A DNA stretch of 32,000 bases from Candidatus Scalindua sp. (GCA_031316235.1 JALDRA010000001.1:4117783-4149782); one strand, 5' to 3'. Positions 396 through 17,646 are shown, numbered from the stretch's first letter. Translations and numbers: made by a program. The notes: a model not told the origin generated them from the sequence alone.

Positions 396-2246
396 TCACA
401 GATGTGTGCCGCGCAATTGACTAACATCCCGAACCGCACCCCTATCAGCGCTCGTTGTCATAGCCGCATACGCACGAAGAGACTGCGATACTTTTCGTGC
501 TCTCTTGCCAGGTTTCCATGCTTCCTCACCTTTAGAATCCATCTTTTCACGTCTCTCATTTAACTCTGCATCAGAAATATCCAGATCAATCTTCCGATTG
601 GGAATATCAATTTTAATACTATCTCCCTCTTCTACCAGTCCAATAGCTCCTCCGGCAGCAGCTTCAGGAGAAATATGACAAATACTCAACCCTGAAGTCC
701 CTCCGCTAAAACGTCCATCTGTAATAAGTGCACACTCTTTCCCAAGATGTTTTGATTTTATATACGTAGTAGGATAGAGCATCTCCTGCATCCCCGGACC
801 GCCTTTTGGACCTTCATATCGAATCAGCACTATATCGCCAGCTTTTATTTTGTCTCCCAGTAATGATTCACACGCACTATCTTGAGAGTGGAATACCCTT
901 GCCGGTCCTTCAAACTTGAAAAGACTCTCATCCACGCCAGCAGTTTTCACAATGCAGCCATCCTCTGCAATGTTTCCATAAAGAACACAAAGTCCGCCAT
1001 CTTGACTATATGCATACTCTAAAGAACGGATGCAGCCGGTTTTATTGTCCGTATCAAGCGAGTCATACATTCTATCCTGCAAAAACGCCTTCGTAGTCTT
1101 CACACCGCCGGGTGCAGCTTTATAAAACTCTTCAGCAGAATTATTTTTCTGATATCGAAACCCGTATTTCTCAATCTGCTCGGCAAGTGTCATTCCACTT
1201 GCCATAATACAGCTCAAATCAAGAATTCCCTCTTTTCTAGAGAGTTCTTCAAGAATTGCAATAATTCCACCAGCTCGATGGACATCTTCAATATGATAGT
1301 GTGATGAAGGTGCAACTTTTGAAAGTGTCGGAACCTGTCGAGATATTTCATCAATATCTTTCATGGTAAATTCAGTACCTGCTTCCTGAGCAACTGCAAG
1401 TATATGGAGAACTGTATTTGTTGATCCTCCCATTGCGATATCAAGGGCCATTGCATTTAGAAAAGCTTCCCTTTTCGCAATTGACCTTGGCAGAACAGAT
1501 TCATCCCCATCAAAATAATATTTTTTTGCCATTTCAACTATTCGAACAGCCGCTTTTTTAAAAAGTCCCCACCTGTTTTTGTGAGTAGCCACTATCGTTC
1601 CATTACCGGGAAGAGCAAGTCCAAGTGCTTCGTTCAGACAATTCATACTGTTAGCCGTAAACATCCCTGAACAGGAACCACAGGTAGGACATGCATTTTC
1701 TTCTATGTTCTTAACCTCTTCATCCGAAATGGTCTCATCCCCTGCAGACATCATTGCATCAATGAGGTCCAGTTTGTTACCACCGGTTTCACCAGCCTCC
1801 ATAGGACCACCGGAAACAAAAATAGCAGGGATGTTCACTCTCATTGCCGCTATCATCATACCGGGAGTTATTTTGTCACAGTTACTGATACAGATCATCG
1901 CATCAGCACAATGAGCATTAACCATGTATTCAACAGAATCAGCAATCAAATCTCTCGATGGTAGCGAATAGAGCATGCCGTCATGGCCCATCGCAATACC
2001 ATCATCAATTGCAATTGTATTAAATTCAATACCAAACCCACCGCTCCCATCTATGACTTCTTTGACCTGCTGTCCAACATCTTTCAGATGAACATGACCA
2101 GGTACAAACTGGGTAAATGAGTTAACAATAGCAATAATAGGCTTACCAAAATCACTCTCACCCATCCCCGTGGCACGCCATAACGATCTTGCGCCAGCCA
2201 TCAATCGACCTTCAGTAGATATACTACTTCTCAATTTACCCATCAA
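396..2246 (-). CDS. ilvD: dihydroxy-acid dehydratase
   Basis: 616-aa ORF colinear with E. coli IlvD from the N-terminus ([102 protein letters not shown]). Confidence 0.97.
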
Positions 2247-3635: not shown

Positions 3636-3775
3636 TATACTCATCTTACAATGGTTTTCGGATAAAATCCGAGAGCAACCGGAGCGAGTAAAGTCCTCGG
3701 CGGTTTTTGTCCGGGGATACCATTAAACAGGTTCTGGTTTTAGAAAAATCTAAAACCAGATCAGTTTCTGTATAC
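3636..3775 (+). repeat. structured intergenic repeat (SIR) copy A, full length 140 bp, forward orientation
   Basis: Starts TATACTCATC and ends GTATAC. It aligns along its length with copies B, C, D and F. It carries hairpin 1 (TCGGAT-AAA-ATCCGA), hairpin 2 (CCTCGG-N10-CCGGGG) and hairpin 3 (TCTGGTTTTAGA-AAAA-TCTAAAACCAGA, a perfect 12-bp stem). Confidence 0.9.
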
Positions 3776-3878
3776 CTGTGTCTCCAAAAGTATGAGACTA
3801 CCTATCAACTCCACCCATGTTGCCCTATCAATCGGCGTATAATCGGGTTTGATAAATGATACAAAAGCGAATTACGGT

Positions 3879-4085
3879 TCATGATGATTTTGGAAAGAAC
3901 TGATCTTGTACCGCAAAACAGGCACCATCATCTTTCGAAGGGATATAGGCACCGATTGGACACAGGACCTTGCTGTCTTCATTACAACGTATGATAATCT
4001 TCCATAATGCATCAAGTCCCTCCTTCTCGTGTTCGCTCTCCGGAATCATTTTAATCATTGACTGGCTTTCAATTGAAATTTTCAT
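3879..4085 (-). CDS. hypothetical small protein (68 aa from the internal ATG)
   Basis: The track ORF is 3879..4175. I prefer Met31 (ATG at 4085) because GGAAAGGA lies about 8 nt upstream, whereas the first ATG has no SD. Product: MKISIESQSMIKMIPESEHEKEGLDALWKIIIRCNEDSKVLCPIGAYIPSKDDGACFAVQDQFFPKSS. I recognise no family. Confidence 0.35.
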   Translation of the reverse strand: MKISIESQSMIKMIPESEHEKEGLDALWKIIIRCNEDSKVLCPIGAYIPSKDDGACFAVQDQFFPKSS

Positions 4086-4202
4086 GGCAAAAAATCCTTT
4101 CCTTTTTTCTAATTCGTTATAGATACATGATTTACTTATAGTATAACATTTTACTACTGCTAACAACAATTTCAATTAAAAACATTGTAACCAGAGAGTA
4201 AA

Positions 4203-4219
4203 AACAAATAGTATTTGTT
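4203..4219. promoter_or_regulatory. 17-bp palindrome AACAAATA-G-TATTTGTT in a divergent intergenic region
   Basis: Perfect 8-bp arms around one central base. It sits between the divergently oriented small ORF (start 4085) and the rhodanese gene (start 4330). Candidate dimeric regulator site; function not shown. Confidence 0.25.
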
Positions 4220-4329
4220 AACAGATAAAAAATCCTGTTTAATATACGTATTAAATAGGTTGAAGAGAGGGGCATCTTCGTTACCTTTTTTCCTCGCTAT
4301 AACAACCAGGTAAAGTTTGAAGATTAATT

Positions 4330-4704
4330 ATGAAAAAACATGCAAAGAGATTTTTACATATTGTTGATGATGCCAAAAGCAGAATTAAGGAAACAAGTAT
4401 CGAAGATGTCAAAGCAAGAGCAGAACGTGGCGACACCTTTTATTTAGTAGACGTCCGTGAAGAGAGTGAATGGAATAAGGGACATATAACGAATGCCATT
4501 TATATCGGTAAAGGGGTAATTGAGAGGGATATAGAAAAAACTATTACAAATATGGGATCAGAAATCATCCTTTACTGTGGCGGAGGATTTCGTTCCGCAT
4601 TGGCTGCTGATTCTTTACAAAAAATGGGATATTCAAATGTCTATTCAATGGCCGGTGGATATAGTGGCTGGGTTGAAGCAGGATATCCGGTTGAAACGGG
4701 ATAA
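4330..4704 (+). CDS. rhodanese-domain sulfurtransferase (single domain)
   Basis: 124 aa. Typical rhodanese layout: YLVDVREESEWNKGHI, then the active-site loop LYCGGGFRS (Cys-X4-Arg), then GYSGW. Confidence 0.9.
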   Translation: MKKHAKRFLHIVDDAKSRIKETSIEDVKARAERGDTFYLVDVREESEWNKGHITNAIYIGKGVIERDIEKTITNMGSEIILYCGGGFRSALAADSLQKMGYSNVYSMAGGYSGWVEAGYPVETG

Positions 4705-4789
4705 GGGTCCTGTCTTTAACCCCATGTCAAAACTATACCTGATCAGGCTCTTGAACGAAAACACCGTAGTTCAACAAAAAGTGTCCAGA

Positions 4790-4930
4790 AATACTAAAGC
4801 CGATCTGGTTTTCGATTTTACCGGAAACAAAATCCTGGTGAAGGTGTCCCCGGACAAAAAGCGCCGAGGACTTGTACTCACTCAATTTTTTCTCGGATTG
4901 TATCCGAAATCCAGTATGAGATGAGTATAC
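4790..4930 (-). repeat. SIR copy B, full length 141 bp, reverse orientation
   Basis: The reverse complement reads GTATACTCATCTCATACTGGATTTCGGATACAATCCGAG...GTCCTCGGCGCTTTTTGTCCGGGG...GTTTCCGGTAAAATCGAAAAC...TTTAGTATT and aligns end to end with copy F. Confidence 0.9.
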
Positions 4931-5260
4931 AGGGAGCGATAATTTTATAACCAGATCATGCTGATGTGCCTGAGGGTTGCAGAATTATTCCCGAAGTGCA
5001 TTAGATGAGTAGTTTGCGTTCAACTACCGCATATTAGTTTTTCTCACCAGATAAGCGGCATCTTTCCCAAACACTGCTTTGGAAAAGACTTGAATTCTAG
5101 TTTACTTTTTCAATGAAATCAATTACATTACGGGATATTGCTCATACTCACCAGCCTTCTCATGTATGAGAGATTGAACTCAATTCCTTACGTAATCATA
5201 AAAATAAATAAAATAATTCGTTGAAAGCTATCTTTTTCTAAACGTTTTTAGGAGAAAACC

Positions 5261-6325
5261 GTGAAACACTTAGTCATTTCAATAATGGTTTGCCTTGTCT
5301 TAATCGGATGCACACATAAGCAAGTCAATAGTTCGGGCTCTTACATTCAGAACCGAGTAGCCGTTTTTAAGGGAGAAAAGCATTTAAAAAACATCAGGCA
5401 GCTAACATTTGGGGGTGAGAATGCTGAAGCGTATTTTTCTTTCAATGCAGATAAACTTGTTTTTCAATCAACACGAGATGATATGGAGTGTGATGCAATC
5501 TTTACGATGAATATAGATGGTACTGATGTGAAGATGGTTTCATCGGGCAAGGGCTCTACTACCTGTTCTTTCATAGCACCTGACAACAAGTCCCTCATTT
5601 ATGCATCAACTCATCTGGCAGGTGATGAATGCCCCCCCAAAGCGGATATGTCGCAAGGTTATGTCTGGGCTTTATATAAAAGCTACGATATTTTCAAAGC
5701 TGATATGAATGGTACAAATATCACCCGCCTGACTGATACTCCAGGATACGATGCCGAGGCAGTATATTCTCCGAAAGGAGATAAAATCATCTTTACGTCA
5801 GTTCGAACAGGCGATCTGGAACTGTTCATAATGGATCCGAATGGTTCTAATGTTGAGCAGGTGACAGATATTCCCGGTTACGATGGTGGAGCCTTCTTTT
5901 CTCTTGACGGAGAATGGATATGCTGGAGGGCATCCAGACCCCAGGGAGAAGAACTCGAAGACTATAAGAATCTTCTTAAAGACGGTTTGATCAGACCAAC
6001 TAAGCTTGAAATCTACGTTATGAATCTCAAAGAACTCAATCCCATTCAGCTGACCAATAACGGTGCCGCTAACTTCGGCCCCTATTTCCACCCTGACGGT
6101 AAAAAAGTTATTTTTGCTTCAAATATGGATGACCCGGAAAAGCGGAATTTTGATCTGTATATGGTTGACATAAAAACCATGAAAATCAGACGTTTAACGT
6201 ATAACCCGACATTCGATGGATTTCCCATGTTCAGCCATGACGGGAAAAAACTGGTTTTTGCTTCAAATCGCAACAACTCCCAACAGGGTGAAACAAATAT
6301 ATTTATAGCCGACTGGATAGATTGA
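5261..6325 (+). CDS. TolB-like / PD40 beta-propeller repeat lipoprotein
   Basis: GTG start preceded by AGGAGAAAACC. N-terminus MKHLVISIMVCLVLIGC has a lipobox (LIGC). Repeated PD40-type units follow (YSPKGDKIIFTSVRTGDLELFIMD, FHPDGKKVIFASN...FDLYMVD, FSHDGKKLVFASNRN). Confidence 0.85.
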   Translation: MKHLVISIMVCLVLIGCTHKQVNSSGSYIQNRVAVFKGEKHLKNIRQLTFGGENAEAYFSFNADKLVFQSTRDDMECDAIFTMNIDGTDVKMVSSGKGSTTCSFIAPDNKSLIYASTHLAGDECPPKADMSQGYVWALYKSYDIFKADMNGTNITRLTDTPGYDAEAVYSPKGDKIIFTSVRTGDLELFIMDPNGSNVEQVTDIPGYDGGAFFSLDGEWICWRASRPQGEELEDYKNLLKDGLIRPTKLEIYVMNLKELNPIQLTNNGAANFGPYFHPDGKKVIFASNMDDPEKRNFDLYMVDIKTMKIRRLTYNPTFDGFPMFSHDGKKLVFASNRNNSQQGETNIFIADWID

Positions 6326-6504
6326 TTGGTTTATTAAGGAAAAGTTTAGACGGGATGTACAGAACAGTCTGGATTATTTCCTTTTACAATGTCTGACCTG
6401 TCCGACATGCTTTTTCCAACGAGAACGGTTTCGTTTTGTTTGGCAGCACAGGTCAGCACTATGATCTTTGACGAGACGTATAAGTTTGGTAAGTAATATT
6501 CCTT

Positions 6505-7194
6505 ATGAGCAATGTAACAAGACCGGATCATATTGGCCACCGCCAGAGGATAAAGGAAAAATACGGGAAGTCCGGGATGGAAGGCTGGCAGGACTACGAA
6601 GTTTTAGAATTACTTTTATCATATGCCATTCCTCGTAAGGATACGAAACCGATAGCGAAAGAGTTGATTGCCCGCTTTAAGACATTCAATGGTGTTCTGG
6701 ATGCTGACAGAAAAGAATTAGAGAGCGTAAGCGGGTTGTCAAAACATTCGGCTCTGTTTTTAAACTTGCTCAAGGACATCTCTATCCTTTACATGGAGAA
6801 AGGCATTCACAGAAGGGACTTGCTTTCATCCCCCCAGGCTGTCTGCAATTATTTAATGGCTGCCTTAAAGGGATTATCAGATGAAGAGTTCAGGATGTTA
6901 TTTTTGGATAGCCGCAATCAGTTGATAGCAATGGAGGTGTTAAAAACAGGTACCGTAAATCGTGCGTATGTTTTTCCGCGAAAAATCGTGGAACGTGCAC
7001 TATATCATCATGCGGTGGGTGTTGTGATTGCCCATAACCACCCTTCCGGGTCATTAAAACCTTCTCCGGAGGATCAGGGGATAACAAGGGATATTAGAGA
7101 AGCTTTAAAAACAGTAGATATTGCTTTGCTTGATCATATTATCATTGCAGGTAATGAATTTTTTAGTTTTAGAGAACATCGGATTTCAATCTAA
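6505..7194 (+). CDS. radC: RadC-family JAB-domain protein
   Basis: 229 aa. N-terminal GHRQRIKEK...LELLL...KPIAKELI..F region and a C-terminal JAMM-like core (VVIAHNHPSGSLKPSPED...T). Confidence 0.9.
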   Translation: MSNVTRPDHIGHRQRIKEKYGKSGMEGWQDYEVLELLLSYAIPRKDTKPIAKELIARFKTFNGVLDADRKELESVSGLSKHSALFLNLLKDISILYMEKGIHRRDLLSSPQAVCNYLMAALKGLSDEEFRMLFLDSRNQLIAMEVLKTGTVNRAYVFPRKIVERALYHHAVGVVIAHNHPSGSLKPSPEDQGITRDIREALKTVDIALLDHIIIAGNEFFSFREHRISI

Positions 7195-7315
7195 GGAAAG
7201 ACAACTATACTCGTTCTGGCTCCAGGGGGTTAAGGTCATTTGATTCCGTGTCAAATCATAAAAACGGGGAGAAAGAAGGCTTATCTTTTGCGGCCTCCGC
7301 CTCTGATCCACAGAA

Positions 7316-10300
7316 TTACCTGGCAACTACCTTCGCAGCTACGGAGTACTCTCTGTCATCGCGCATAAAAACGATCGTGATCTCGTTACCTGCCTGTAAC
7401 GACTTTAAGACATCGGAATAAGTTTGCAGGTCTTCGATTGCGGTGTCTTCGATCCGAACAATAATATCGCCCTTCTGAAGACCAGCTTGAACTGCCGGTG
7501 TATCTGGGGTAACCCCCTCAAGGCGAACTCCTTTACCGGTATAGGTAAAGTCCGGAACACTACCCAGGATTATTCGTCTTGAAGTATGCTGTTGCTTTTT
7601 TTTCTGGTTTGTACTCTCTTTTGCAGCAGTCAGTGTTGAGGTCAGAGGTTCGGGTCTGGCAGCAAGGTATTCAACCACTTCCTTCAGGATTGCAGCAGTC
7701 TTTACCAGGCCTGCCGTATCAATCCTGTCAACAGTATCTGTTGGACGATGATAATTGTCGCGTGCACCGCTGAAGAGATGTACCGCGGGCACACCGGCGT
7801 CGAGAAAACTTTTCTCATCTCCGTTGCCGGTATCTATGGTTGATTGCTTGATTTCCACACCGGTTACGTAACCGGCACCACGAAAGATATGTACCCATTC
7901 GCGAGCAGAGTAGCTGCCGAATATAGTCAGGGCATCTTTACCTAACTGGCCGACTGTATCAATATTGATCATCGCCATGGCCTTGGAGACTGGATATTTC
8001 TTTGCATGACCGATGTAATGCAATGAGCCGAGCTTTCCGGCCTCCTCTGCGCTGAAGGCTACGAATACAATTGTGCGTTCAGGCTGCCATTTTTTCCCAA
8101 CCAGGCGGGCAAATTCCAGTAAAACGGAGATACCACTGCCATTATCGTCGGCACCGGGGTGTATTTTACCTTCGTTGCCTTTAAGGACGTCAGGCCAACC
8201 GCGCCCGTGAGAATCATAGTGGGCGCCGATAACCACGCTCTCTCCCTCCCATTGAGGATTTTTACCCGGTATAATTCCTATTACATTCTTTATAGTTAAG
8301 GCAACTTGCTCCGGCATATTTACCTGTTCTATCCATGTCTGAAAATAATCATCCACATCATCCCCGCAGGGCAGTAATCCGGCATCAGAAAACTGTTTCG
8401 CGATATAGTCTGAGGCCTTATCTATTCCGGGAGTACCCAGGCCTCTTCCCTCCAGCTCGTCAGAAGCGAGGTACTTGATATCCTTTAACATTCTCATTTC
8501 AGAAAAAACGGGAGGTAATTGCGCAAGGGCTGCACGTGGTGCAAGCATGGCTGCCGTTGATTTCACTTCTGTACCGTCACTTTGCAGAACAGCAATCGAC
8601 ATGGGTGAATTAACTACAGGCCATTGACCCTTGAAGACATTGGCAGGTTCATCACCGGTAAAACCAAGGTAGCTGTATCTGTTGTAATGTGGGAGTTTTC
8701 TTCCCAGACCCGGCATTGCTGTTACATTATCCGTGGCAAGCCAGGCCAGTGCCTGTGCGCTGTTGGAAGGGTGCCGTGCCATAACAACAATAGAGTGCTG
8801 CTTACGTTCAAGCTCGGTACCATCTATCTGTATTTGATTTTCGTTGCCATCGTAAACATAGTCTGAAAGCGCCTTGTTGACCATGGAACGAAAACGGTTT
8901 TCCCAGCCAAACAACCACACGGCACGATCTGTTGGCAATTCATCAAGCTCATTATCCAGCTTAATCTCTAACTGGGAAGAGCTTCCTTTCTTCCATCCTT
9001 TTGCCAGATCTTGATAAGCAAGACGTATAGATTCCGGCGCAGTTGCAGGCAAAACCACCAGAACCTGTTCTGCACCAAAGACCTGGCTTATGGCTGGCGG
9101 AGTTTCATTATGATCCAATGTTCGGAAGACGTCAAATTCCGGGTCAACATCCAGGCGTACAGGACGTGCAGGAAGATTGAGTTCCAGATTGTATTGTTTC
9201 GCATCAACTTCAATGCTGGTCTGGAACGCGTTTGCAACATTTTCCATGTGAACGGCAATTGGCAACCTTAACCGGTACGGCACTTCTTCCTGAATCTGTT
9301 CAATTGTGGCCGAAAGGACGTAACTATCACCTTGCCGTCTCGCAGCAGCCCGGCTTAATCTCAGGGAGGGTGCCCCGGTCTTCTTTACCCACTGTTCGAA
9401 CATCAATTCCAGATGATCTTCCGTTACACTATTGAAGGTTGTTTCGACTTCATCAAAGGAAGTTATCTTAAACTGGTATTTTCTATAGAATTGACGTAGC
9501 GCCTTAATAAAGAGCTGATCGCCCAGTTGGCAGCGGAGCATATGAAACAACATCATGGTCTTACCGTAACCTACTGCCTCGGTGACGGCACTATGGCGTG
9601 AACGAAATTCGGTAAGAGGAAAATCTTTGTTAGCCGTTACATAGTTGGTGTATTTTTGCAGCACCGAACGACGGTATTCAACCGCCTCGCCACGTTGCTC
9701 CTTTATGAGATGATCAGCAAGATACGTTGTCAGCCCTTCGGCCCAATTGCCTTTCTCATAATCAGTATATACTCCATTTCCCCACCAGTTATGCAGAATC
9801 TCATGGGGATAAGATGAATGGAGGATAAAAGGAAAACGAATGACCCTGGAGCCAAGCAGAGTAAAAGATGGCATACCATAACCTGTTTCCCAGAAATTCT
9901 CTACGAGGGCGAACTTTTTATAGGGATACGGACCGAGAAGTTTCCGGTACATCTCAAGATACTGTGCTGTTGTATCAAGATACTTTTGTGCAAGCTGGGA
10001 ATCCGGCTGTCGCAGGAAGGCCATGGCATCCACAACACCTGCTGCCTGGCCATATTCAGTAAACTCTGCGGCTATGAGGTAAATCTCCTCCTGAGGCTTT
10101 TCCATCACCCATTCATCCCTCCGGAATTCTTTGGCGGTATCATGTTTATTGCGTTCACCCTGGCTTACAGATACCCAGCCTGGCGGCAATTTAACAGCCA
10201 TGCTGAATGTCACCAGTTCATTTACAAAATATGGATACCAGAAGCTTGTCCCGCTCATGAATACACCTTCCGGGGAAATAATACCAGATGTCACACTGAA

Positions 10301-10729
10301 GCTGCGTGCGTAATCCTCTCCATATTCCTTCACCGGATGAAAAACCTCGCCCTCATATTTGAGTGTAAATTGAGTCGTTCCCGGTGGCAATTTCAGTTCA
10401 AAGAGCTCCAATGGAATAGAAGCATGCTGAAGGGATGGATTGTTACTATAGAATTTCCCTGCTTCAGGTCCAAAACATTTCCTGAGAACAACTCCTTTGT
10501 CCATGACCTCAGGTTTGAGTCCCTGATGAAGCACAAAATTAAAAAGCTCTGTGTGTTTTAATTCTGAGGACAATGAGATTTTATCAACGATCTCAACCCG
10601 GTGGCGTTCCGGATACAACGCAACATCAAGATCGTGGTTGATCTGGCCGAATGTAGTCGGCGATACAATCAGAACAAAGAGAGCCGTTGGTAAAAAGCGC
10701 CGACAAAATTGGTTTAAATGGTAATTCAC
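7316..10729 (-). CDS. secreted multidomain metalloprotease: M1-like gluzincin + M28 aminopeptidase + C-terminal PDZ
   Basis: 1137 aa with a signal-peptide-like N-terminus (FLPTALFVLIVSPTTFGQ). HEILH (complement of 9791-9805) followed 18 residues later by NWAEGLT gives the gluzincin HExxH-E signature. An M28 block follows later (VIGAHYDSHG, ADDNGSGISVLLEFARL, FVAFSAEEAGKLGSLHY). The C-terminus is PDZ-like (GVRLEGVTPDTPAVQAGLQKGDIIVRIED). Confidence 0.88.
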   Translation of the reverse strand: MNYHLNQFCRRFLPTALFVLIVSPTTFGQINHDLDVALYPERHRVEIVDKISLSSELKHTELFNFVLHQGLKPEVMDKGVVLRKCFGPEAGKFYSNNPSLQHASIPLELFELKLPPGTTQFTLKYEGEVFHPVKEYGEDYARSFSVTSGIISPEGVFMSGTSFWYPYFVNELVTFSMAVKLPPGWVSVSQGERNKHDTAKEFRRDEWVMEKPQEEIYLIAAEFTEYGQAAGVVDAMAFLRQPDSQLAQKYLDTTAQYLEMYRKLLGPYPYKKFALVENFWETGYGMPSFTLLGSRVIRFPFILHSSYPHEILHNWWGNGVYTDYEKGNWAEGLTTYLADHLIKEQRGEAVEYRRSVLQKYTNYVTANKDFPLTEFRSRHSAVTEAVGYGKTMMLFHMLRCQLGDQLFIKALRQFYRKYQFKITSFDEVETTFNSVTEDHLELMFEQWVKKTGAPSLRLSRAAARRQGDSYVLSATIEQIQEEVPYRLRLPIAVHMENVANAFQTSIEVDAKQYNLELNLPARPVRLDVDPEFDVFRTLDHNETPPAISQVFGAEQVLVVLPATAPESIRLAYQDLAKGWKKGSSSQLEIKLDNELDELPTDRAVWLFGWENRFRSMVNKALSDYVYDGNENQIQIDGTELERKQHSIVVMARHPSNSAQALAWLATDNVTAMPGLGRKLPHYNRYSYLGFTGDEPANVFKGQWPVVNSPMSIAVLQSDGTEVKSTAAMLAPRAALAQLPPVFSEMRMLKDIKYLASDELEGRGLGTPGIDKASDYIAKQFSDAGLLPCGDDVDDYFQTWIEQVNMPEQVALTIKNVIGIIPGKNPQWEGESVVIGAHYDSHGRGWPDVLKGNEGKIHPGADDNGSGISVLLEFARLVGKKWQPERTIVFVAFSAEEAGKLGSLHYIGHAKKYPVSKAMAMINIDTVGQLGKDALTIFGSYSAREWVHIFRGAGYVTGVEIKQSTIDTGNGDEKSFLDAGVPAVHLFSGARDNYHRPTDTVDRIDTAGLVKTAAILKEVVEYLAARPEPLTSTLTAAKESTNQKKKQQHTSRRIILGSVPDFTYTGKGVRLEGVTPDTPAVQAGLQKGDIIVRIEDTAIEDLQTYSDVLKSLQAGNEITIVFMRDDREYSVAAKVVAR

Positions 10730-10736
10730 TTGATTA

Positions 10737-10850
10737 TATACTCATCGTATAATGGATTTCGGACTAAATCCGGGAAAAACGGAGCGAGCCTGACGGCAAA
10801 CCCGTCTTTGGATTTTAGAAAAATCTATAACCATACCGGTTTTAGTATAC
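10737..10850 (+). repeat. SIR copy C, divergent 114-bp copy, forward orientation
   Basis: TATACTCATCGTATAATGGATTTCGGACTAAATCCGGG...GACGGCAAACCCGTC...GGATTTTAGAAAAATCTATAACCA...TTTTAGTATAC. It has the same ends and order of hairpins as copy A, but a different sequence at the hairpin 2 position. Confidence 0.8.
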
Positions 10851-11090
10851 TCCAATAAGAAAACAGTATCCTTATAAATTGTAAGGTTTACCATTGAGTT
10901 GTCAACCATATTAAAGTTAACTATTTGATGATCTATGCTTACGATGCTGTCGGGCATGGAACACTTCTCTTCTCAATTCATCGATACATGAATACAGGCT
11001 GCCATGTTTCAGTCTTTGTCACCATATACATCTGTATGATTGAGTCATTCATAAAAAAAAGCTACAAGAGATAACTAAATATCAAACCAG

Positions 11091-11202
11091 CTATACTAAA
11101 ACCTATCTGGTTTTCGGTTTTACCGGAAACCAAATCTTGGTGAAGGTATACTCGCTCAAATTTATCTCGGATTTTATCCGAAAACCATTATGAGATGAGT
11201 AT
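11091..11202 (-). repeat. SIR copy D, 112 bp, reverse orientation, lacks the 28-nt hairpin-2 module
   Basis: The reverse complement equals copy F except that CAAGTCCTCGGCGCTTTTTGTCCGGGGA is precisely absent (GAGCGAGTA|TACCTTCACC). Confidence 0.9.
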
Positions 11203-11613
11203 ATCCTTAAACAGTGTAACAGAAAGGAACACTATTGTTACATTACCAACAATACTTCCTTCTTCATACAATCAGTTCAAATTATAACGTACAGAAATGG
11301 TTATCTTTAGAGCAGTATTTGATGTGTAATGTATTTTATCAAAACAATGGTATGAATATTGCGTAAAATCAATAAAATACTATAAAAATCAAAAAACCCA
11401 TCTCTCAATCTTCTTCATTAAAAAAGGAGCCTTTAACGTTACTATCAGGAAAAAACAGGTTTGTCCTAGCACCATTTAGTCTTGCAGTAAATCAACTTAA
11501 GAAAAACAAAGAGATAATGAAAAAGTTTTCTGATAAAGGTTATGCTAAAAAGGATAGTGAAATACCGTACTAATACCAGGATGATGCCCTGTCACGGCTG
11601 CATTATAAAAGGA

Positions 11614-11675
11614 TATACTAAAACCGATTTGATTTTCGGTTTTACCGGAAATCAAATCTTGGTTGCAGTTATACT
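11614..11675 (-). repeat. SIR copy E, 62-bp half element (hairpin-3 module only)
   Basis: TATACTAAAACCGATTTGATTTTCGGTTTTACCGGAAATCAAATCTTGGTTGCAGTTATACT. It matches the first 62 nt of copy D and stops at the internal TATACT that D also has. Confidence 0.8.
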
Positions 11676-11747
11676 GGCAAAGCACCTCTATAAGGTCTTA
11701 AATTCCTCAAGTTATGGTTTTTAAATGACAATGTTATTTACAAATAT

Positions 11748-11769
11748 TTTCTGCATCTCAATGCAGAAA
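11748..11769. promoter_or_regulatory. perfect 9-bp stem / 4-nt loop hairpin TTTCTGCAT-CTCA-ATGCAGAAA
   Basis: Lies 24 nt upstream of the 11793 start codon. No U-run follows, so it does not look like an intrinsic terminator. Possible operator or leader structure. Confidence 0.2.
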
Positions 11770-11792
11770 TTCTGAAGGTGTAAAAGAAAAAC

Positions 11793-12338
11793 ATGAAAAG
11801 AGATATGGACTTAATAAGAAAATTACTCTTTTACTTTGAGCAAACGAAAGATACTGTGCATGATAATCTTCCAAAGATTGAAGGATATGATGCAAATAGT
11901 ATAAAATATCATATTTATCTGTTGTATGACTCAAAACTTCTTCACTGTGAACCGGTGAAATCAGAGATAACCGGGCAGGTTTTATATTTAACGCCGCTTA
12001 ATGTATCGTGGGATGGAAACGAGTTCCTGGAGAAGGTAAGAAGCGACATCACCTGGGAAAAAATAAAAAAAACAATCGTTGACAAAGGTGAAGCTTTTTC
12101 TTTCAGCAATATAAATCAGATAACAAACCAAAAGGGAGACCAGGAAAAGTATTGTCTGAATCCTGATTTTGAGTTGAAGTGGCAAAAACTGATTGACAGA
12201 AATCCAGGTGATCTGCAAGTGCATGCCCTTCATGCCCTGAGACTTGGTCTGTACCTGAAAGAAGAGAGAGGAGATATAACAAATAATGAAGCCAGCAGGA
12301 TTTTTGAAAATATAAAAATGTCGTTAGTTACATTATAG
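11793..12338 (+). CDS. DUF2513-like hypothetical protein
   Basis: 181 aa. The N-terminus MKRDMDLIRKLLFYFE...YHIYLL matches my recollection of the DUF2513 family (often phage or island associated). Assignment from memory only. Confidence 0.55.
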   Translation: MKRDMDLIRKLLFYFEQTKDTVHDNLPKIEGYDANSIKYHIYLLYDSKLLHCEPVKSEITGQVLYLTPLNVSWDGNEFLEKVRSDITWEKIKKTIVDKGEAFSFSNINQITNQKGDQEKYCLNPDFELKWQKLIDRNPGDLQVHALHALRLGLYLKEERGDITNNEASRIFENIKMSLVTL

Positions 12339-12554
12339 CTTACAATAAAAATATCCTGAATGGTATAAAAAGAATTGTCACAGTATTTCATGATGAAAAG
12401 ATCTTTATACATGAGGCACTTATTTCCCAAGGTCTCCCACGCAAAGATTCATCCCCTAATTTTTTCATATTTTTATCACCAAACCAAAGATAATGTAACA
12501 ACACTCATTAATATTCATCTAGATTTTAAACAATTATAAATTTCAGAAGAAAGG

Positions 12555-13907
12555 ATGTTTGAGATGAGAAGGATCCTGTTTGTGGATAATGATTTGGGTG
12601 CGTCGCGGGAATTAAGAAAGATACTTTGCCTCATGTGCCCTGATTGGGACATAGACATTGTCATAAGCGGAGAAGAAGCACTGCACCTCATGTCAGAATC
12701 CTCTTTTGATGTTCTTGTGTCCGACATTTATCTCCAGGGAATGAACGGTGTAGAATTACTTGGTGCTGTTAGTGAACGTTATCCTGAAACTGTTCGTATT
12801 ATTCATGCAGAGGTTTCTGATCCTGAGACAGTCCTTAAGTCCACTATGACCGTGCATCAGTTTTTGACGAAACCGTGTTGTGCCGAAATAATGAAAAAGA
12901 CCATTGAACGTACATGCAAACTTCGAGATATGTTAAATAACGAAACATTAAAAAAGATAGTTGCAGGTACAAAAAATTTGCCGAGCCTCCCTGTTTTATA
13001 TAATTCAATCGTATCAGAAATGCAGTCTTCAGAACCTTCTCTCAGAAAGGTAGGCCATTTCATTTCACAGGACGTGTCAATGTCTGCAAAAATCCTACAG
13101 TTAGTCAACTCTGCTTTCTTTGCTCTGCCACGCAAAATTACCAACCTGCAGCATGCATCAGTTTTTGTGGGGATAGAGTCATTGAAGGCACTTGTACTGT
13201 CTATTCATCTGTTTTCTTCATTTACAGAGGATGCAGAATTATCTGGATTCTCGATAACGAAAATGTGGAACCATTGTTTGATAACTGGAGGTCTTGCCAG
13301 GGACATTGCGCGTGCAGAAAAGGCTTCTGGTAATGTAGCAGAAGAGGCGATGATAGCGGGAATGTTACATGATATAGGAAAACTTATAATGCTGAAAGTC
13401 CCCCGTCAATACAAAAAAGTGATAAAACTTATTGAAACAACCGGTTGTGATTCTGCAGAAGCTGAATACACTGTTATGAAAACTTCTCATTCAGAATTGG
13501 GAGCTTATCTCTTGGGACTCTGGGGACTTCCCGGCAATGTAGTCGAATCAGTTGCCTTTCACCACAACCCATCCAGGCTGATAGAGCGTATGTTCATTAT
13601 GTCAAATGAATCCCTGAAAGAGGGTTTGATCAAAACTGAATCGAAAGATAGCATCTTGATACCTCAGCCGACAGCAAACCACTCGAATGAGTTTACCGCA
13701 TTAACAGCTGTTCATATAGCGAATGCATTGACAATGCAGGAAGTAATTTCAGAGGAGTCAACTCTTTTCCCGTACGTAGACATGTCGTATTTAAAAACTC
13801 TGGATTTGACAGACAGGTTACCGAAGTGGGTTGAGCTTTGTACCAATATAAAAAAACGATCCCATGCTGAAACTATTTTCCCCGGGCAATTTCCATCTCT
13901 TCAGTAA
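12555..13907 (+). CDS. response-regulator receiver + HDOD domain protein
   Basis: 450 aa; ATG 12564 (MRRILFVD) is an alternative start 8 nt downstream of AAAGGA. Receiver features are ILFVDND, FDVLVSDIYLQGMNG and FLTKP. HDOD features are LPSLPVLYNSIVSEMQS...ISQDVSMSAKILQLVNSAFF...SLKALV, later GMLHDIGKL. Confidence 0.85.
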   Translation: MFEMRRILFVDNDLGASRELRKILCLMCPDWDIDIVISGEEALHLMSESSFDVLVSDIYLQGMNGVELLGAVSERYPETVRIIHAEVSDPETVLKSTMTVHQFLTKPCCAEIMKKTIERTCKLRDMLNNETLKKIVAGTKNLPSLPVLYNSIVSEMQSSEPSLRKVGHFISQDVSMSAKILQLVNSAFFALPRKITNLQHASVFVGIESLKALVLSIHLFSSFTEDAELSGFSITKMWNHCLITGGLARDIARAEKASGNVAEEAMIAGMLHDIGKLIMLKVPRQYKKVIKLIETTGCDSAEAEYTVMKTSHSELGAYLLGLWGLPGNVVESVAFHHNPSRLIERMFIMSNESLKEGLIKTESKDSILIPQPTANHSNEFTALTAVHIANALTMQEVISEESTLFPYVDMSYLKTLDLTDRLPKWVELCTNIKKRSHAETIFPGQFPSLQ

Positions 13908-13910
13908 CAT

Positions 13911-14138
13911 TCATTTTTTCTCACGTAATGCTTGCATTTTATATTCTACGGCAAGCTGGAACAGGAACTCCGGAATGATAAAGAACATGATCCACTGAAA
14001 GCCGATACGTGAGGAGTAGCGGAGGATCTGCAAGGGACATGAAGCTGATAAATGATTAGGTTTTATTATTGCGTGAAAAATGGCGATGAGTAGCTTCATT
14101 AAGAGGCTCAAACCTCCTGAGGGTGCAGGAAAAAACAA
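13911..14138 (-). pseudogene. orphan fragment duplicating part of the 18000-18659 reading frame
   Basis: The 75-aa ORF ends ...LQILRYSSRIGFQWIMFFIIPEFLFQLAVEYKMQALREKK; compare ...LQIFRYSSLIGFQWIMFFIIPEFLFQFAVEYK at the end of 18000..18659. Nucleotides 13943-14033 align with 18008-18098 at about 90 percent identity, including a 45-nt identical core. The upstream part of the ORF has no similarity. Confidence 0.7.
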
Positions 14139-14159
14139 CTTGTTATTCTTTCCTGGGTT

Positions 14160-14390
14160 CTAAGCTAAGAATTTTTTAATCTCATCTACACTAGCCACTT
14201 TACCTTCACTGACAACATCATGATTAATTGATAATGCCGGTGTTCTCATGATGCCAGCAGTAATGATGGCATTCATATCTGTTATTTTTTTCACCTCATA
14301 AGGAATATTCAATTCCCTGGCCGCATCTTCTGCATTGGCTGTTAGTTGCTGACATTTACTGCAACCGCTACCATAAATAATAAATTTCAT
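14160..14390 (-). CDS. thioredoxin-fold small redox protein (redox-active disulfide protein 2 type)
   Basis: 76 aa: MKFIIYGSGCSKCQ (CxxC) ... GIMRTPALSINHDVV. This small glutaredoxin/thioredoxin-like family is typically encoded next to COG0701-type permeases. Confidence 0.85.
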   Translation of the reverse strand: MKFIIYGSGCSKCQQLTANAEDAARELNIPYEVKKITDMNAIITAGIMRTPALSINHDVVSEGKVASVDEIKKFLA

Positions 14391-14410
14391 TTTTTATCCC
14401 CTTATTACTC

Positions 14411-15730
14411 TCACCAAAAATTACCATAAATAAATCCTGATATGGTTGCCATGACGGTAACAAGCATACAGTAAACTACTGTTTTTTGAGTTCCAATGAT
14501 GGTGCGTATAACCAGCATGTTCGGCAGTGATAAGGCTGGACCTGCCAGTAACAGCGCCAATGCTGGCCCCTTACCCATCCCGGAAGCAAGTAAACCTTCT
14601 ACTATCGGAACTTCAGTCAACGTGGAAAAATACATGAACGCACCCATTACCGATGCCAGGAATGTTGACAGCAGCGAGTTATCCCCCACGGCCATGACTA
14701 CCCATTCATCTGGTATTAATCCGTCATACCCAGGTCGACCTAACAATAAGCCTGCAATAAACACACCGCCTATTAGTAAAGGCATGATCTGCTTTGTAAA
14801 ATCCCAAGTCTGAGCAGCCCACTCCCGATCTTGACTATTTAGTAAGGCCAACAGCATGATACCAATCACACCAATAGAAAAGGGCAATTGTGGTGCACCA
14901 GGCACAAGCAAGGCAGAAAGTGCAACGACAGCTGACAAAATCAATAAATGCTTTACAGACCACTGCCAACGAAAAACCAGTAGCGTCGCAAATAATGCAG
15001 CCAACACCGCCGTAATCTGCCATTTCCATTGATAAATCAACATCCAGGTATCGTTCTCAGCTGCAGCCCAGTTAGCAAAAACAAGAATACCAATCATCAG
15101 GCCAAAAAAAGCTACTGTAGCACTCAGCGGTTTACCTTGATCATCTGCCGAAAAACCACGACCTGAGTCCGAAGATCGTTCAGCCTCTTCCTTTCGGTAG
15201 ATGAAATGCATGATGAGACCGACAACCAATGCGAACAAGATTGCCCCAATCGCTCTGGCAATACCCAGCTCAGCTCCCAATACTTTCGCAGTCACCACAA
15301 CTGCCATAATATTGATAGCTGGCCCTGAGTAAAGAAAGGCAATAGCTGCACCCAGGCCAGCACCACGTTTATAAATTCCACCAAAAAGCGGGAGTACAGT
15401 GCATGAACAAACTGTAAGCATTGCACCGGATACCGATGCCACACCAAGCGCAACAGGTTTCGATACCTGAGGCCCCAGATATCGCATCACGGAGCCTTGG
15501 CTGATATACACTGCCATGGCGCCCGCTATCAAAAAAGCTGGTAACAAACAAAGGATGACGTGCTCTCTTGCGTACCAGTTGGTCAATCGTATACCTTCGA
15601 GCCAGGCATTGCTGAAACGTTCAGAATCAACAGGCAGGAAATATATAACCAAAAATCCCACTGACATAATGAGAAGAAAGCGGCCCTGATGTGGGTTTTC
15701 TTTATACATCGCACATAACTTTGTAACCAC
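14411..15730 (-). CDS. COG0701/ArsP-like multi-pass permease
   Basis: 439 aa, strongly hydrophobic throughout, with the family-typical VCSCTVLPLF motif. It lies immediately upstream of, and on the same strand as, the thioredoxin-like gene (20-bp gap). Confidence 0.8.
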   Translation of the reverse strand: MVTKLCAMYKENPHQGRFLLIMSVGFLVIYFLPVDSERFSNAWLEGIRLTNWYAREHVILCLLPAFLIAGAMAVYISQGSVMRYLGPQVSKPVALGVASVSGAMLTVCSCTVLPLFGGIYKRGAGLGAAIAFLYSGPAINIMAVVVTAKVLGAELGIARAIGAILFALVVGLIMHFIYRKEEAERSSDSGRGFSADDQGKPLSATVAFFGLMIGILVFANWAAAENDTWMLIYQWKWQITAVLAALFATLLVFRWQWSVKHLLILSAVVALSALLVPGAPQLPFSIGVIGIMLLALLNSQDREWAAQTWDFTKQIMPLLIGGVFIAGLLLGRPGYDGLIPDEWVVMAVGDNSLLSTFLASVMGAFMYFSTLTEVPIVEGLLASGMGKGPALALLLAGPALSLPNMLVIRTIIGTQKTVVYCMLVTVMATISGFIYGNFW

Positions 15731-15765
15731 AACAATACCCCGGTTAATTTTGAAAATTATATATT

Positions 15766-15905
15766 TATACTCATCTCATACTGGTTTTCGGATAAAATCC
15801 GAGATAAAATTGAGCGAGTACAAGTCCTCGGCGCTTTTTGTCCGGGGATACCTTCACCAAGATTTGGTTTCTGGTAAAACCGAAAACCAAATCGGTTTTA
15901 GTATA
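15766..15905 (+). repeat. SIR copy F, full length 140 bp, forward orientation (used as reference)
   Basis: TATACTCATCTCATACTGGTTTTCGGATAAAATCCGAGATAAAATTGAGCGAGTACAAGTCCTCGGCGCTTTTTGTCCGGGGATACCTTCACCAAGATTTGGTTTCTGGTAAAACCGAAAACCAAATCGGTTTTAGTATA. Confidence 0.9.
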
Positions 15906-16023
15906 GCTAAAAGGATCAGACCATCAAATGTCTCTTCTGGAACCATCAACACAGGCCTGTCTGCCATCTCACAAAGATTGGCAGCAGTACTCGCAATCAA
16001 ACCACCCGATTCTGCAACGCCTG

Positions 16024-17592
16024 CTACAGTGCCTGATTGACCAGCGCAAGAATCTGCTCAGATTCTGAGACCGATTCGGTATCAATGGTAACGGTATAGC
16101 CCTGCTCATCGTCATCGAGTCCCGCGTACGCCGCGAGCTGATGCTCAAGCACGCTGAGATCTGCTTCCGAGATGTCGCGGCCTTCACGCTGGCGGTTTTG
16201 AATGCGCTGTCGAAGCACATCGGCATCGGCACGAAAGAACAGGATACGAATCGGCACACCGAGACGATCCGCCAGTTGCTTAAAAGGTTTTCTCTGCTGG
16301 CGTTCGAGAAACGTCGCGTCAATGATTACGGAATACCAGGATTGCAGAACAGCCTCGGCAAGTTCTGCAAGTTTCCCATAGGTTTGCCGACCGGCGTCTT
16401 CGGAGTACACCCCTTCACTGATAGTGGACGCCTCACCTTGCCGCCTGCCTTTACCGAACATTCGCTGTCGCTCGCGATCCGAGCGAATTCTTATTGCTGC
16501 CAATGACTCAACCAATGGCCCCGAGAGGGTGGACTTGCCGCTGCCCGACAAGCCATGGGTGATGAATAATGCAGGCTGTTGCGGCTGTGTGTAGCTGAGC
16601 GCGAGCTGTAGATAACACTCGAATTCCTGCATGTCTGACGATTGCAGGTCGGACACGGCTTGCTGGCCCAAACGAATACACGCGACTTTGGCTCGCACCA
16701 TGGCACGGTAAGCCTGGTAGTAGCGAAATACCCGCAGCCCCTGATAATCCCCGGTCCTTTCCAGATAGCTGTTCAAAAAACGGCAGGCAAGATTGTGCTT
16801 CCCGTGGTACTCGAGGTCCATGCACAGGAAAGCTACCTCGCTCATTACGTCAATCCAGTAGAGATCAGGATTAAACTCGATACCATCAAAGATGACCACT
16901 CGATCGTCGACCACCGCCATATTGCCCAGATGCATATCACCATGGCATTCACGAATAAAGCCCTGTTCTTTTCTCTGCCGAAAATGCGGGTAACACGATT
17001 CGTATTGGTGTTCGGCCCATACTTCCAGCTGATCAAGCAATTCAAGATGTCGGGGAGCGTGCATACGCTCTCGAATTTGCACAAAATTTTCATGCACCGG
17101 TGCGGCGACGTGATCAGGATTTCCATATCGGGTGCCGGGAGTTGCTGCCGGAATGGTCTGGTGAAAGTCTGCAACCTGGGCAATGACCTGACTGATGTGA
17201 GTATCGGCCAGAAGATGCTGTTGCAGCATATGGCTCAACAGTGCCTGCTGCGGAAAACGGCACATTTTCACTGCGTATTCGAAGGCTTCACCTGATCCTC
17301 CCAGTTGCAGCTGGTCGGGTGTGCCGGTAATAGGAACAACCGCCAAGTAGAGTTCAGGCGCCAGCCTGCCATTGAGGCGCAGTTCCTCTTCGCAATAGAA
17401 TTTGCGTTTGGCCAGCGTCGAGCAGTCCATGAACCCGAGATTGAGCGCCTTTTTAATCTTATAGGCATACGATCCACTCAGGAAAACCCAAGAAATATGG
17501 GTTTCGATCAGCTCAAGCCTATCAGCGTCGTGCGGGTATACCGAGGGATTCTGTAGAGAGCGGATCAATTGGCGCTGGTTTTTATCAATCAT
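16024..17592 (-). CDS. two-domain kinase: APH-like protein-kinase fold + C-terminal P-loop (AAA_33/zeta-toxin-like) kinase
   Basis: 522 aa. The N-terminal half carries the aminoglycoside/choline-kinase catalytic motif (CHGDMHLGNM ... DGIEF). The C-terminal half has a Walker A motif (HGLSGSGKSTL) and a short nucleotide-kinase-like domain. Confidence 0.85.
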   Translation of the reverse strand: MIDKNQRQLIRSLQNPSVYPHDADRLELIETHISWVFLSGSYAYKIKKALNLGFMDCSTLAKRKFYCEEELRLNGRLAPELYLAVVPITGTPDQLQLGGSGEAFEYAVKMCRFPQQALLSHMLQQHLLADTHISQVIAQVADFHQTIPAATPGTRYGNPDHVAAPVHENFVQIRERMHAPRHLELLDQLEVWAEHQYESCYPHFRQRKEQGFIRECHGDMHLGNMAVVDDRVVIFDGIEFNPDLYWIDVMSEVAFLCMDLEYHGKHNLACRFLNSYLERTGDYQGLRVFRYYQAYRAMVRAKVACIRLGQQAVSDLQSSDMQEFECYLQLALSYTQPQQPALFITHGLSGSGKSTLSGPLVESLAAIRIRSDRERQRMFGKGRRQGEASTISEGVYSEDAGRQTYGKLAELAEAVLQSWYSVIIDATFLERQQRKPFKQLADRLGVPIRILFFRADADVLRQRIQNRQREGRDISEADLSVLEHQLAAYAGLDDDEQGYTVTIDTESVSESEQILALVNQAL

Positions 17593-17646
17593 GTCTGACT
17601 GTCCCCTGAGGATGATAGAAATTTTCTTTTTAGAGATTGTGCGATA

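Follow-up and report, generated by a model that had tools for sequence, protein, structure and literature searches.

The window analyzed here is a 32,000-nucleotide stretch of the genome of Candidatus Scalindua sp. (GCA_031316235.1 JALDRA010000001.1:4117783-4149782), and it includes six copies of a short, hairpin-rich intergenic repeat. The copies, A to F, are found in both orientations within 12 kb (Table 1). The neighboring genes are ilvD and those for a class-III aminotransferase, a rhodanese, a PD40 protein, RadC, an M1/M28 peptidase, a DUF2513 protein, an HDOD response regulator and an ArsP-type permease, and none of them is interrupted. Two open reading frames (ORFs) that run over copy B (4577-4924) and copy F (15750-16040) are spurious. 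No real gene is overlapped in the window, in agreement with a first-pass annotation that was made from the sequence alone and that described the repeats as strictly intergenic. Copies A and F are located 36 nucleotides from start codons, and copy C is located 8 nucleotides from one. A scan of the window for tRNA and tmRNA did not reveal any genes.

Table 1. Repeat copies, their modules and associated elements in the window; coordinates of copies count the flanking TA on both sides
Feature	Coordinates	Strand	Description
Copy A	3636-3774	+	Full form, with left module, hairpin 2 and right module; TA on both flanks; right-module apex is the TTTTAGAAAAATCTAAAA variant
Copy B	4790-4929	-	Full three-hairpin form; right-hand TA mutated to TT; nested in palindromic repeat Y
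Host repeat Y	4751-5023		Palindromic, about 133 nt without B; ends TTGAACG...CGTTCAA; split by copy B
Copy C	10737-10849	+	Left and right modules, no hairpin 2; divergent center with small GC hairpin (10792-10806)
Copy D	11092-11203	-	Left and right modules; identical to F except that the 28-nt hairpin 2 is missing
Copy E	11614-11672	-	Right module only: TA-TAACTGCAACC...TTTTAGTA-TA
Copy F	15766-15905	+	Full form; nearest to the family consensus; TA + TAC...GTA + TA
Left module of F (M1)	15766-15820	+	Terminal TACT, subterminal TGGTTTTCGG, hairpin 1 (15786-15804) within an outer stem
Optional module of F (hairpin 2)	15821-15848	+	28 nt; GC-rich stem, T-rich loop
Right module of F (M3)	15849-15905	+	Hairpin 3 (15856-15896); terminal ...GGTTTTAGTA
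IS630-family copy	20304-21530	-	Helix-turn-helix and DDE_3 ORFs; 28-nt inverted ends CTAGTGTCACGTCAA..., unrelated to the ends of the repeat

The six segments align along their full length. They lie within 1 nucleotide of the places given in the first-pass annotation, several of whose ends were off by that single nucleotide, and the match is far above chance. A degenerate 21-base pattern for the left module has exactly five matches in the window, compared with 0.01 expected from shuffled sequences, and a right-module pattern has four, compared with 0.00. Searches with profile hidden Markov models of the modules did not reveal a seventh copy in the window. The most diverged of the six are C and A.

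Copy F is predicted to fold into three hairpins (-46.5 kcal/mol, z = -4.75), and its complementary strand is predicted to fold equally well (z = -4.95). Hairpins 1 and 3 are homologous as direct repeats (GGTTTYCGGNTAAAAYCCGA), and both carry the same TAAAA loop on the same strand. Alignment confirms that D lacks exactly the 28 nucleotides of hairpin 2. The three hairpins that had been assigned to every copy are present in A, B and F, but D has hairpins 1 and 3, C has these two plus a different GC hairpin, and E has hairpin 3 only. Copy E, whose right module is the TAACTGC variant, is indeed a hairpin-3 module alone, but it is not bounded by inverted TATACT sequences, as its second TATACT (11669-11674) is a direct copy. 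Likewise, the terminal sequence TTTTAGTATA that the full copies were thought to share does not apply to A, which ends in TTTCTGTATA, or to B, which ends in CTTTAGTATT.

The family extends well beyond the window. A scan for the left-end pattern, using one genome per species, identified at least 120 stretches, nearly all of them in metagenome-assembled genomes (MAGs) of Candidatus Scalindua or Scalinduaceae. Loci (numbered with the prefix L) were fetched by exact match to the left end, and the resulting DNA, roughly 1 Mb, was surveyed with profiles of M1 and M3 and with a fuzzy pattern for hairpin 2. This census comprises 172 elements in at least five Scalindua-type genomes, with the caveat that exact left-end fetching favors well-conserved copies. 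Elements with both ends are divided into 82 that lack hairpin 2 (M1-M3) and 52 that include it (M1-H2-M3); there are also 23 solo or truncated left ends and 9 solo right ends. Lower bounds for single genomes are 77 copies (RBC_AMX3), 67 (SCAELEC01) and 17 (the near-closed CBDCUS01), and a few copies are present in two other Planctomycetota MAGs. The corresponding densities, again lower bounds, are about one copy every 26-30 kb for two MAGs and about one every 300 kb for CBDCUS01, against six copies in the 32 kb of the window. The first-pass annotation had anticipated many more copies genome-wide and had regarded a total of six as one outcome that would count against its proposal. More than 170 copies elsewhere agree with the expectation and dispose of that outcome.

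The genes of the window are syntenic with those of Scalindua MAGs at 74-85% identity, and the nearest homologue of the rhodanese is 85% identical. This places the host among the anammox planctomycetes of the Scalindua group, with no close relative in the databases. Short-read contigs of the window organism stop inside copies A, B and E (L001, L122 and L123, the Logan contig L001 breaking within A), as is expected of a genuine multicopy repeat. The family occurs in dozens, and probably hundreds, of copies in several Scalindua genomes.

The ends of the repeat are inverted and bipartite, consisting of TACT plus TGGTTTTCGG. When the left end, TACTCATCTCATAATGGTTTTCGG, is compared with the right end, TACTAAAACCGATTTGGTTTTCGG, 16 of 24 positions are identical. 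Both ends are nearly invariant, more so than any other part of the element in an alignment of 65 copies. To find empty sites, the two flanks of every copy were joined, and all fetched DNA was searched for matches spanning the junction. Five independent comparisons of filled and empty sites, paralogous or orthologous, fit a duplication of TA. A copy in L069, which lies inside another repeat, changes the sequence of four paralogous empty sites from GTAATT-TA-TTAAC to GTAATT-TA[TAC...GTA]TA-TTAAC. The orthologous pair L055 and L033 reads TTGGATT-TA[...]TA-TCTCGC when filled and TTGGGTT-TA-TTTCGC when empty, and L118 reads TTTTCATG-TA[...]TA-ACAAC where L083 is empty with TTTTCATT-TA-ACAAC. For a copy in L081, the empty sites of L062 and L041 read CCCAG-GTAC-AAGG, and the length fits a 2-bp duplication only. 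Copy B of the window interrupts repeat Y, whose relatives in SCAELEC01 include L081 (2075-2210), L022 (1724-1859), L062 and L041. The site that is filled by copy B reads CCTTG-TA-CCTAGACAC in L081, and the same is found in the relative in L022. A sixth comparison is provided by a sister element with nearly the same ends in L085, which lies at a TA inside a copy of the repeat, with the TA duplicated.

In 138 complete copies, no direct repeat extends beyond the TATA...TATA ends. The flanks of these copies have a symmetric, AT-rich preference, with almost no C at position -2 and almost no G at positions +2 and +3. Because filled sites differ from empty sites by the element and one extra TA, the element proper is TAC...GTA, with the outer TA as its target-site duplication. 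The 6-bp terminal inverted repeat TATACT/AGTATA of the first-pass annotation therefore stands as to inverted ends, but its outer TA is duplicated target outside the element, and the similarity between the ends reaches further inward.

Sites that are filled in one species are empty in others. Neither copy A nor copy B is present in the corresponding syntenic spacers of L125, L126 and L127, which represent three other species and in which the spacer between the rhodanese and PD40 genes is 77-91 nucleotides long, versus 556 in the window. Within 20 kb of syntenic or neighboring DNA, there are no copies in S. japonica (L124), one each in L125 and L126 (SCAELEC01), and a fragment in CBDCUS01 (L127). 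Further interspecies comparisons also reveal copies that are present in one species and absent in the other, in spacer alignments that are mostly too diverged for exact junctions. Shortened forms have likewise reached several sites. A 57-nucleotide minimal form, in which the left arm of hairpin 1 is joined to the right arm of hairpin 3, is found as four copies in two species, and a form of 89-91 nucleotides occurs at three loci of one genome. Since such minimal and derived forms are located at unrelated sites, the ends alone seem to suffice for spread. Mean similarity between copies is 0.87-0.90 between species and 0.88-0.91 within species, and flanking orthologous DNA is 74-82% identical. Such similarity would be expected if conserved source copies were recently active or if the element had been transferred between lineages.

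The repeats are very probably a non-autonomous DNA transposon, a family of MITEs (miniature transposable elements with inverted repeats) in Scalindua-type anaerobic ammonium-oxidizing (anammox) bacteria. All of the features by which bacterial MITEs are defined (PMC3184786) are found: the elements are short, within the range of mostly under 200 bp and up to about 400 bp that is given for such MITEs, lack a transposase gene, have inverted ends and a target duplication, occur in many dispersed copies with presence and absence among genomes, and have a stable fold. A DDE transposase supplied in trans would bind the ends of about 25 nucleotides and move the element by cut-and-paste. IS630/Tc1-mariner elements duplicate TA, and some IS5 subgroups make duplications of 2-4 bp. 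The TA duplication thus points first to a transposase of the IS630/Tc1-mariner type, and one from such an IS5 subgroup is retained as a further candidate. Of the properties expected of a MITE derived from IS630/Tc1-mariner, the TA duplication is present, and ends that match the resident IS630 are not. The duplication agrees with what the first-pass annotation named first, a MITE with TA-containing ends of Tc1/IS630 type. That annotation also did not recognize the repeat as a described element; no matching named family was found, and a full-text literature search combining Scalindua or anammox with terms for MITEs and repeats did not return a paper describing such elements or an account of MITEs in anammox bacteria. 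The family appears to be undescribed, and its kind is ordinary and well known.

Other explanations can be considered for hairpin-rich intergenic repeats. The elements might be similar to repetitive extragenic palindromic (REP) sequences and bacterial interspersed mosaic elements (BIMEs), or might be IS200/IS605-derived palindromic elements (PATEs), which a Y1 (HUH) transposase moves as single-stranded DNA by way of subterminal hairpins, with no target duplication. Hairpins 1 and 3, with their common strand and asymmetric TAAAA loop, resemble the left-end and right-end hairpins of IS200/IS605 elements, and hairpin 1 begins 19-20 nucleotides from the left end. Also, the element is modular and strictly extragenic, as REP and BIME sequences are: crude ORFs occupy 68.5% of the DNA, and 126 of 127 complete copies are located outside them. 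A Y1 transposase would not, however, be expected to leave the duplicated TA to which six filled and empty sites conform, and neither the inverted ends nor the symmetric target preference suits it. The 57-nucleotide forms still spread, although they keep only the two ends. A tblastn search of the fetched DNA with an IS200 TnpA query did reveal an IS200/IS605-type Y1 gene (L061, about 4176-4574, minus strand), but this gene is decayed, frameshifted and not flanked by the repeat, and in the roughly 1 Mb sampled no gene for Y1 or the REP-associated transposase RAYT was found to be flanked by it. Moreover, there is no conserved REP-type head sequence, and the AT-rich elements of 110-140 nucleotides differ from the GC-rich palindromes of 20-40 nucleotides that typify REPs. 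These explanations, of which the first-pass annotation had kept a REP/BIME-like element on a par with a MITE, are very improbable.

The stable fold of both strands (z about -4.8), the high similarity among copies in species whose genes are 74-82% identical, and the position of several copies within 50 nucleotides of start or stop codons, including A, C and F, would also be expected of small structured RNA genes, or of a cis-acting RNA or DNA structure under selection, such as a terminator, an mRNA stabilizer or a protein-binding site. In the alignment of 65 copies, 91.3% of paired cells are compatible with pairing versus 91.2% after columns are shuffled, and the covariation score is 0.050 versus 0.052. 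Covariation is thus absent, and mutations disrupt the stems at random. The repeat has no match in Rfam 15, either in the window at the gathering score (the best sub-threshold hit, to copy F at a permissive E-value, has 16 bits versus 100) or in L085. A family of small RNAs, a terminator or another strand-specific function is further disfavored by the lack of orientation bias relative to flanking genes (30 copies with, 33 against) and of a preference for spacer type: tandem, divergent and convergent spacers have 63, 29 and 12 copies, and background spacer DNA is distributed as 57, 28 and 15%. Matches resembling outward promoters or terminators occur within the element at background level, and insertion sites are not common to species. 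A functional RNA or DNA structure, including the small-RNA gene family that had been suggested earlier, is thus very improbable, and the hairpins are probably not a selected RNA structure. They would instead be a legacy of a palindromic build, with hairpins 1 and 3 as diverged versions of a single unit. Finally, six copies in 12 kb are denser than elsewhere (at least about one per 26-30 kb in the two MAGs, and 0-1 per 20 kb of syntenic DNA), as a local duplication or an assembly artifact confined to this stretch would predict. This is scarcely credible, given that the other copies come from independently assembled genomes, at least five in number, where their flanks are unrelated, and that short-read contigs of the same organism break inside copies.

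Several observations weigh against a MITE mobilized in this way. The roughly 1 Mb of sampled DNA was not found to contain an autonomous element that has these ends, and scans for a partner in IMG/VR and, by blastn, in plasmids both gave 0 matches. When metagenomes were scanned for those ends that are followed by G or C, only another MITE subfamily was identified. The family of the transposase is judged from a single property, the 2-bp TA duplication, and the sole IS630 in the window has unrelated ends. Moreover, sequence by itself does not separate a duplicated TA from an element that carries one TA and inserts beside another. Among the window copies, a base-exact empty site is limited to B, and the closest protein match to the window organism is 85% identical. 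Look-ups of exact protein matches, aimed at close strains, retrieved only short contigs from the same sample. The similarity of copies between species is overstated, as the sampling favors conserved copies, and strong conservation could also come from selection.

The IS630-family copy in the window was considered as the autonomous partner and rejected, because its ends are unrelated to those of the repeat, a mismatch that the first-pass annotation had already reported. A tblastn search of the fetched loci with its transposase did not detect a relative. The same region includes other transposase genes (20304-26287), namely an IS1380-like DDE_Tnp_1_4 gene that is split in two (21720-23135) and IS66 fragments (23309-24202 and 25652-26287). 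Every solo or truncated end of the repeat was inspected. Beside these ends are housekeeping genes, a group II intron or an insertion of IS110, and no transposase adjoins them. Pairs of inverted ends that are 0.6-3.5 kb apart mostly look like separate copies, as judged by their ends.

A sister MITE, here called family 2, is intact in L098 and also occurs in L085. It is about 185 nucleotides long, with ends TACCCATCACAAATTGGTTTTCGG and near-perfect terminal repeats of 24 nucleotides. The ORFs of two pairs of family 2 ends were examined; the ends of one pair are located on either side of an integrase fragment, and no transposase lies within the other. In L045 (1249-2474), two inverted family 2 ends, each with TA, are 1.2 kb apart and enclose fragments of a tyrosine recombinase with an integron-integrase-like motif. 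This arrangement is probably a chance juxtaposition or a composite. The 26-nucleotide end of the Scalindua repeat heads family 2 as well. It also heads a repeat of about 210 nucleotides in MFD09671.bin.3.6, a MAG labeled Gammaproteobacteria (L004, 629-654; L066, 305-515), which starts with the identical 26 nucleotides TATACTCATCACACTTTGGTTTTCGG and ends with the related TACCCACCGCACTTT. This occurrence reflects either an end motif that is common to phyla or a misbinned contig. Because one 26-nucleotide end heads different MITEs, the ends define a wider superfamily.

Lengths of the repeat reflect its modular organization. Counted with the flanking TAs, elements are mostly 57-236 nucleotides long (with one candidate of 262), with peaks at 112-113 and 139-140, and none has an ORF. 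The element proper is 53 nucleotides in the minimal form, commonly 108-109 or 135-136, and, in the long forms that are best documented, as many as about 230. Hairpin 2 is never arrayed, being present once or not at all, and the length classes of about 113, 140, 166, 194 and 200-236 nucleotides are not multiples of it. The extra length consists of GC-rich hairpins of 27-55 nucleotides (CCYGCCYG...GACRGG), which are located directly 5' of TAAAA in the loops of hairpins 1 and 3, without a duplication. Of 53 matches to this pattern, 49 are inside copies, and TAAAA follows in 41 of these. Examples begin at 5455 in L007, 2933 in L060 and 7786 in L027, and free-standing ones are found in L109 (7125-7178) and L118 (2166-2192). 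None is present in the window copies. The GC hairpins could be a separate, loop-targeting mini-element that moves as single-stranded DNA (HUH/Y1-type), or could result from a hairpin-extension process.

All pairwise combinations of the variable parts are found, that is, insertion in hairpin 1, presence of hairpin 2, the two heads of the right module, and the apex and tail variants. This suggests recombination among copies, or else repeated gain and loss. Internal deletions have occurred between short direct repeats of the element itself, and derivative forms have spread to new sites. The modularity would arise by gain or loss of hairpin 2, by entry of GC hairpins into the hairpin 1 and hairpin 3 loops, and by recombination between copies.

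Other mobile elements have inserted into the repeat. In L091 (4498-6224), an IS110-family element with DEDD_Tnp_IS110 and Transposase_20 domains, frameshifted, lies inside the hairpin 2 loop of one copy. A second copy of this element, in L013 (1-1577), abuts the same half of hairpin 2, and its outer flanks differ. The loop of hairpin 2 appears to be a specific target of IS110, by analogy with REP sequences for IS621. In L085 (430-2506), family 2 is inserted at a TA in the left module of a copy and is itself split by a group II intron, which makes three levels of nesting. The intron encodes a reverse transcriptase/maturase (580-1827, minus strand) and matches Rfam families RF01999 and RF00029. 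It is conceivable, though on balance doubtful, that the repeat is the base layer of a three-tier nesting system, with hairpin loops as landing pads for GC hairpins and IS110 elements and with a hint of one transposase family that acts across phyla.

Three further features of the window were noted. The RadC-like (JAB) gene (6505-7194), which is between the PD40 and peptidase genes, is missing from the syntenic region of L125, L126 and L127 and appears to be a lineage-specific insertion. A 96-nucleotide direct repeat, 92% identical, is found 3' of the response-regulator gene (13938-14033) and inside an ORF at 18000-18659 (18003-18098). Finally, a 38-nucleotide inverted repeat, 82% complementary (17612-17649 and 19097-19134), brackets about 1.4 kb with two small ORFs.

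Few prokaryotic mobile elements have been studied as little as MITEs, and the family adds a new host group. Scalindua, the main anammox genus of marine waters, is known from enrichments and MAGs only. A repeat that occurs at least every 26-30 kb in two MAGs explains the shattering of short-read assemblies, and three contigs end inside window copies. The family could provide markers for strain typing. Its copies flag spacers in which gene regulation may differ between species, given that three copies in the window are 8-36 nucleotides from start codons. The IS110 element found nested in a copy provides one more possible natural target of a bridge-RNA recombinase. The insertion in the hairpin 2 loop and the loop-specific GC hairpins are the most unusual leads. 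Nothing here changes how MITEs are understood to work, and the family would not surprise a specialist. A 2024 review of MITEs describes their taxonomic distribution without mention of Planctomycetes or anammox bacteria (PMC10969869).

The repeat can be compared with several known families, to none of which it belongs by sequence. RUP, from Streptococcus pneumoniae, is a 107-bp foldback MITE whose ends resemble those of an IS630-family element that is believed to mobilize it in trans (PMC3049150). For RUP the candidate partner, IS630-Spn1, is known, whereas none was found for the Scalindua repeat, and the resident IS630 has unrelated ends. The enterobacterial ERIC/IRU sequences are imperfect palindromes of about 127 bp that occur in spacers and have size variants from insertions and deletions at fixed internal sites. 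They have no sequence similarity to the repeat and differ from it in copy-number dynamics and host; they are listed as MITEs in PMC10969869.

The order of left module, hairpin 2 and right module resembles that of BOX elements of S. pneumoniae (boxA-boxB(n)-boxC), in which the end modules form the main foldback and the middle module folds independently and may be absent (PMC3049150). However, boxB forms tandem arrays of variable number, whereas hairpin 2 is present once at most, and the repeat has GC hairpins in its loops, a TA duplication and no sequence similarity to BOX, to which it does not belong. REP and BIME sequences are similarly extragenic, hairpin-forming and built as mosaics of modules. 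They are targets of IS110-family elements such as IS621 (PMC11208160), as hairpin 2 of one Scalindua copy was for such an element. In contrast to the AT-rich repeat with its inverted ends and duplicated TA, REPs are short GC-rich palindromes that depend on a Y1 transposase and do not duplicate their target.

Correia elements (CREE/NEMIS) of Neisseria are similar in that they are non-coding, about 100-155 bp long, with inverted ends of about 26 bp and a long foldback. They duplicate TA and have length variants that arise by internal deletion, and they are not known to have a cognate transposase. More than 100 dispersed copies are present in Neisseria, with outward promoters, an IHF site and RNase III cleavage of transcripts (PMC10969869). 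The Scalindua repeat differs in that it belongs to another phylum, lacks sequence similarity to Correia elements, has promoter matches at background level, and includes an optional middle hairpin and loop insertions. Judged by analogy, it would nonetheless work most like a Correia element, with which it shares the lack of a known transposase, the TA duplication, ends of about 26 bp and variants formed by deletion.

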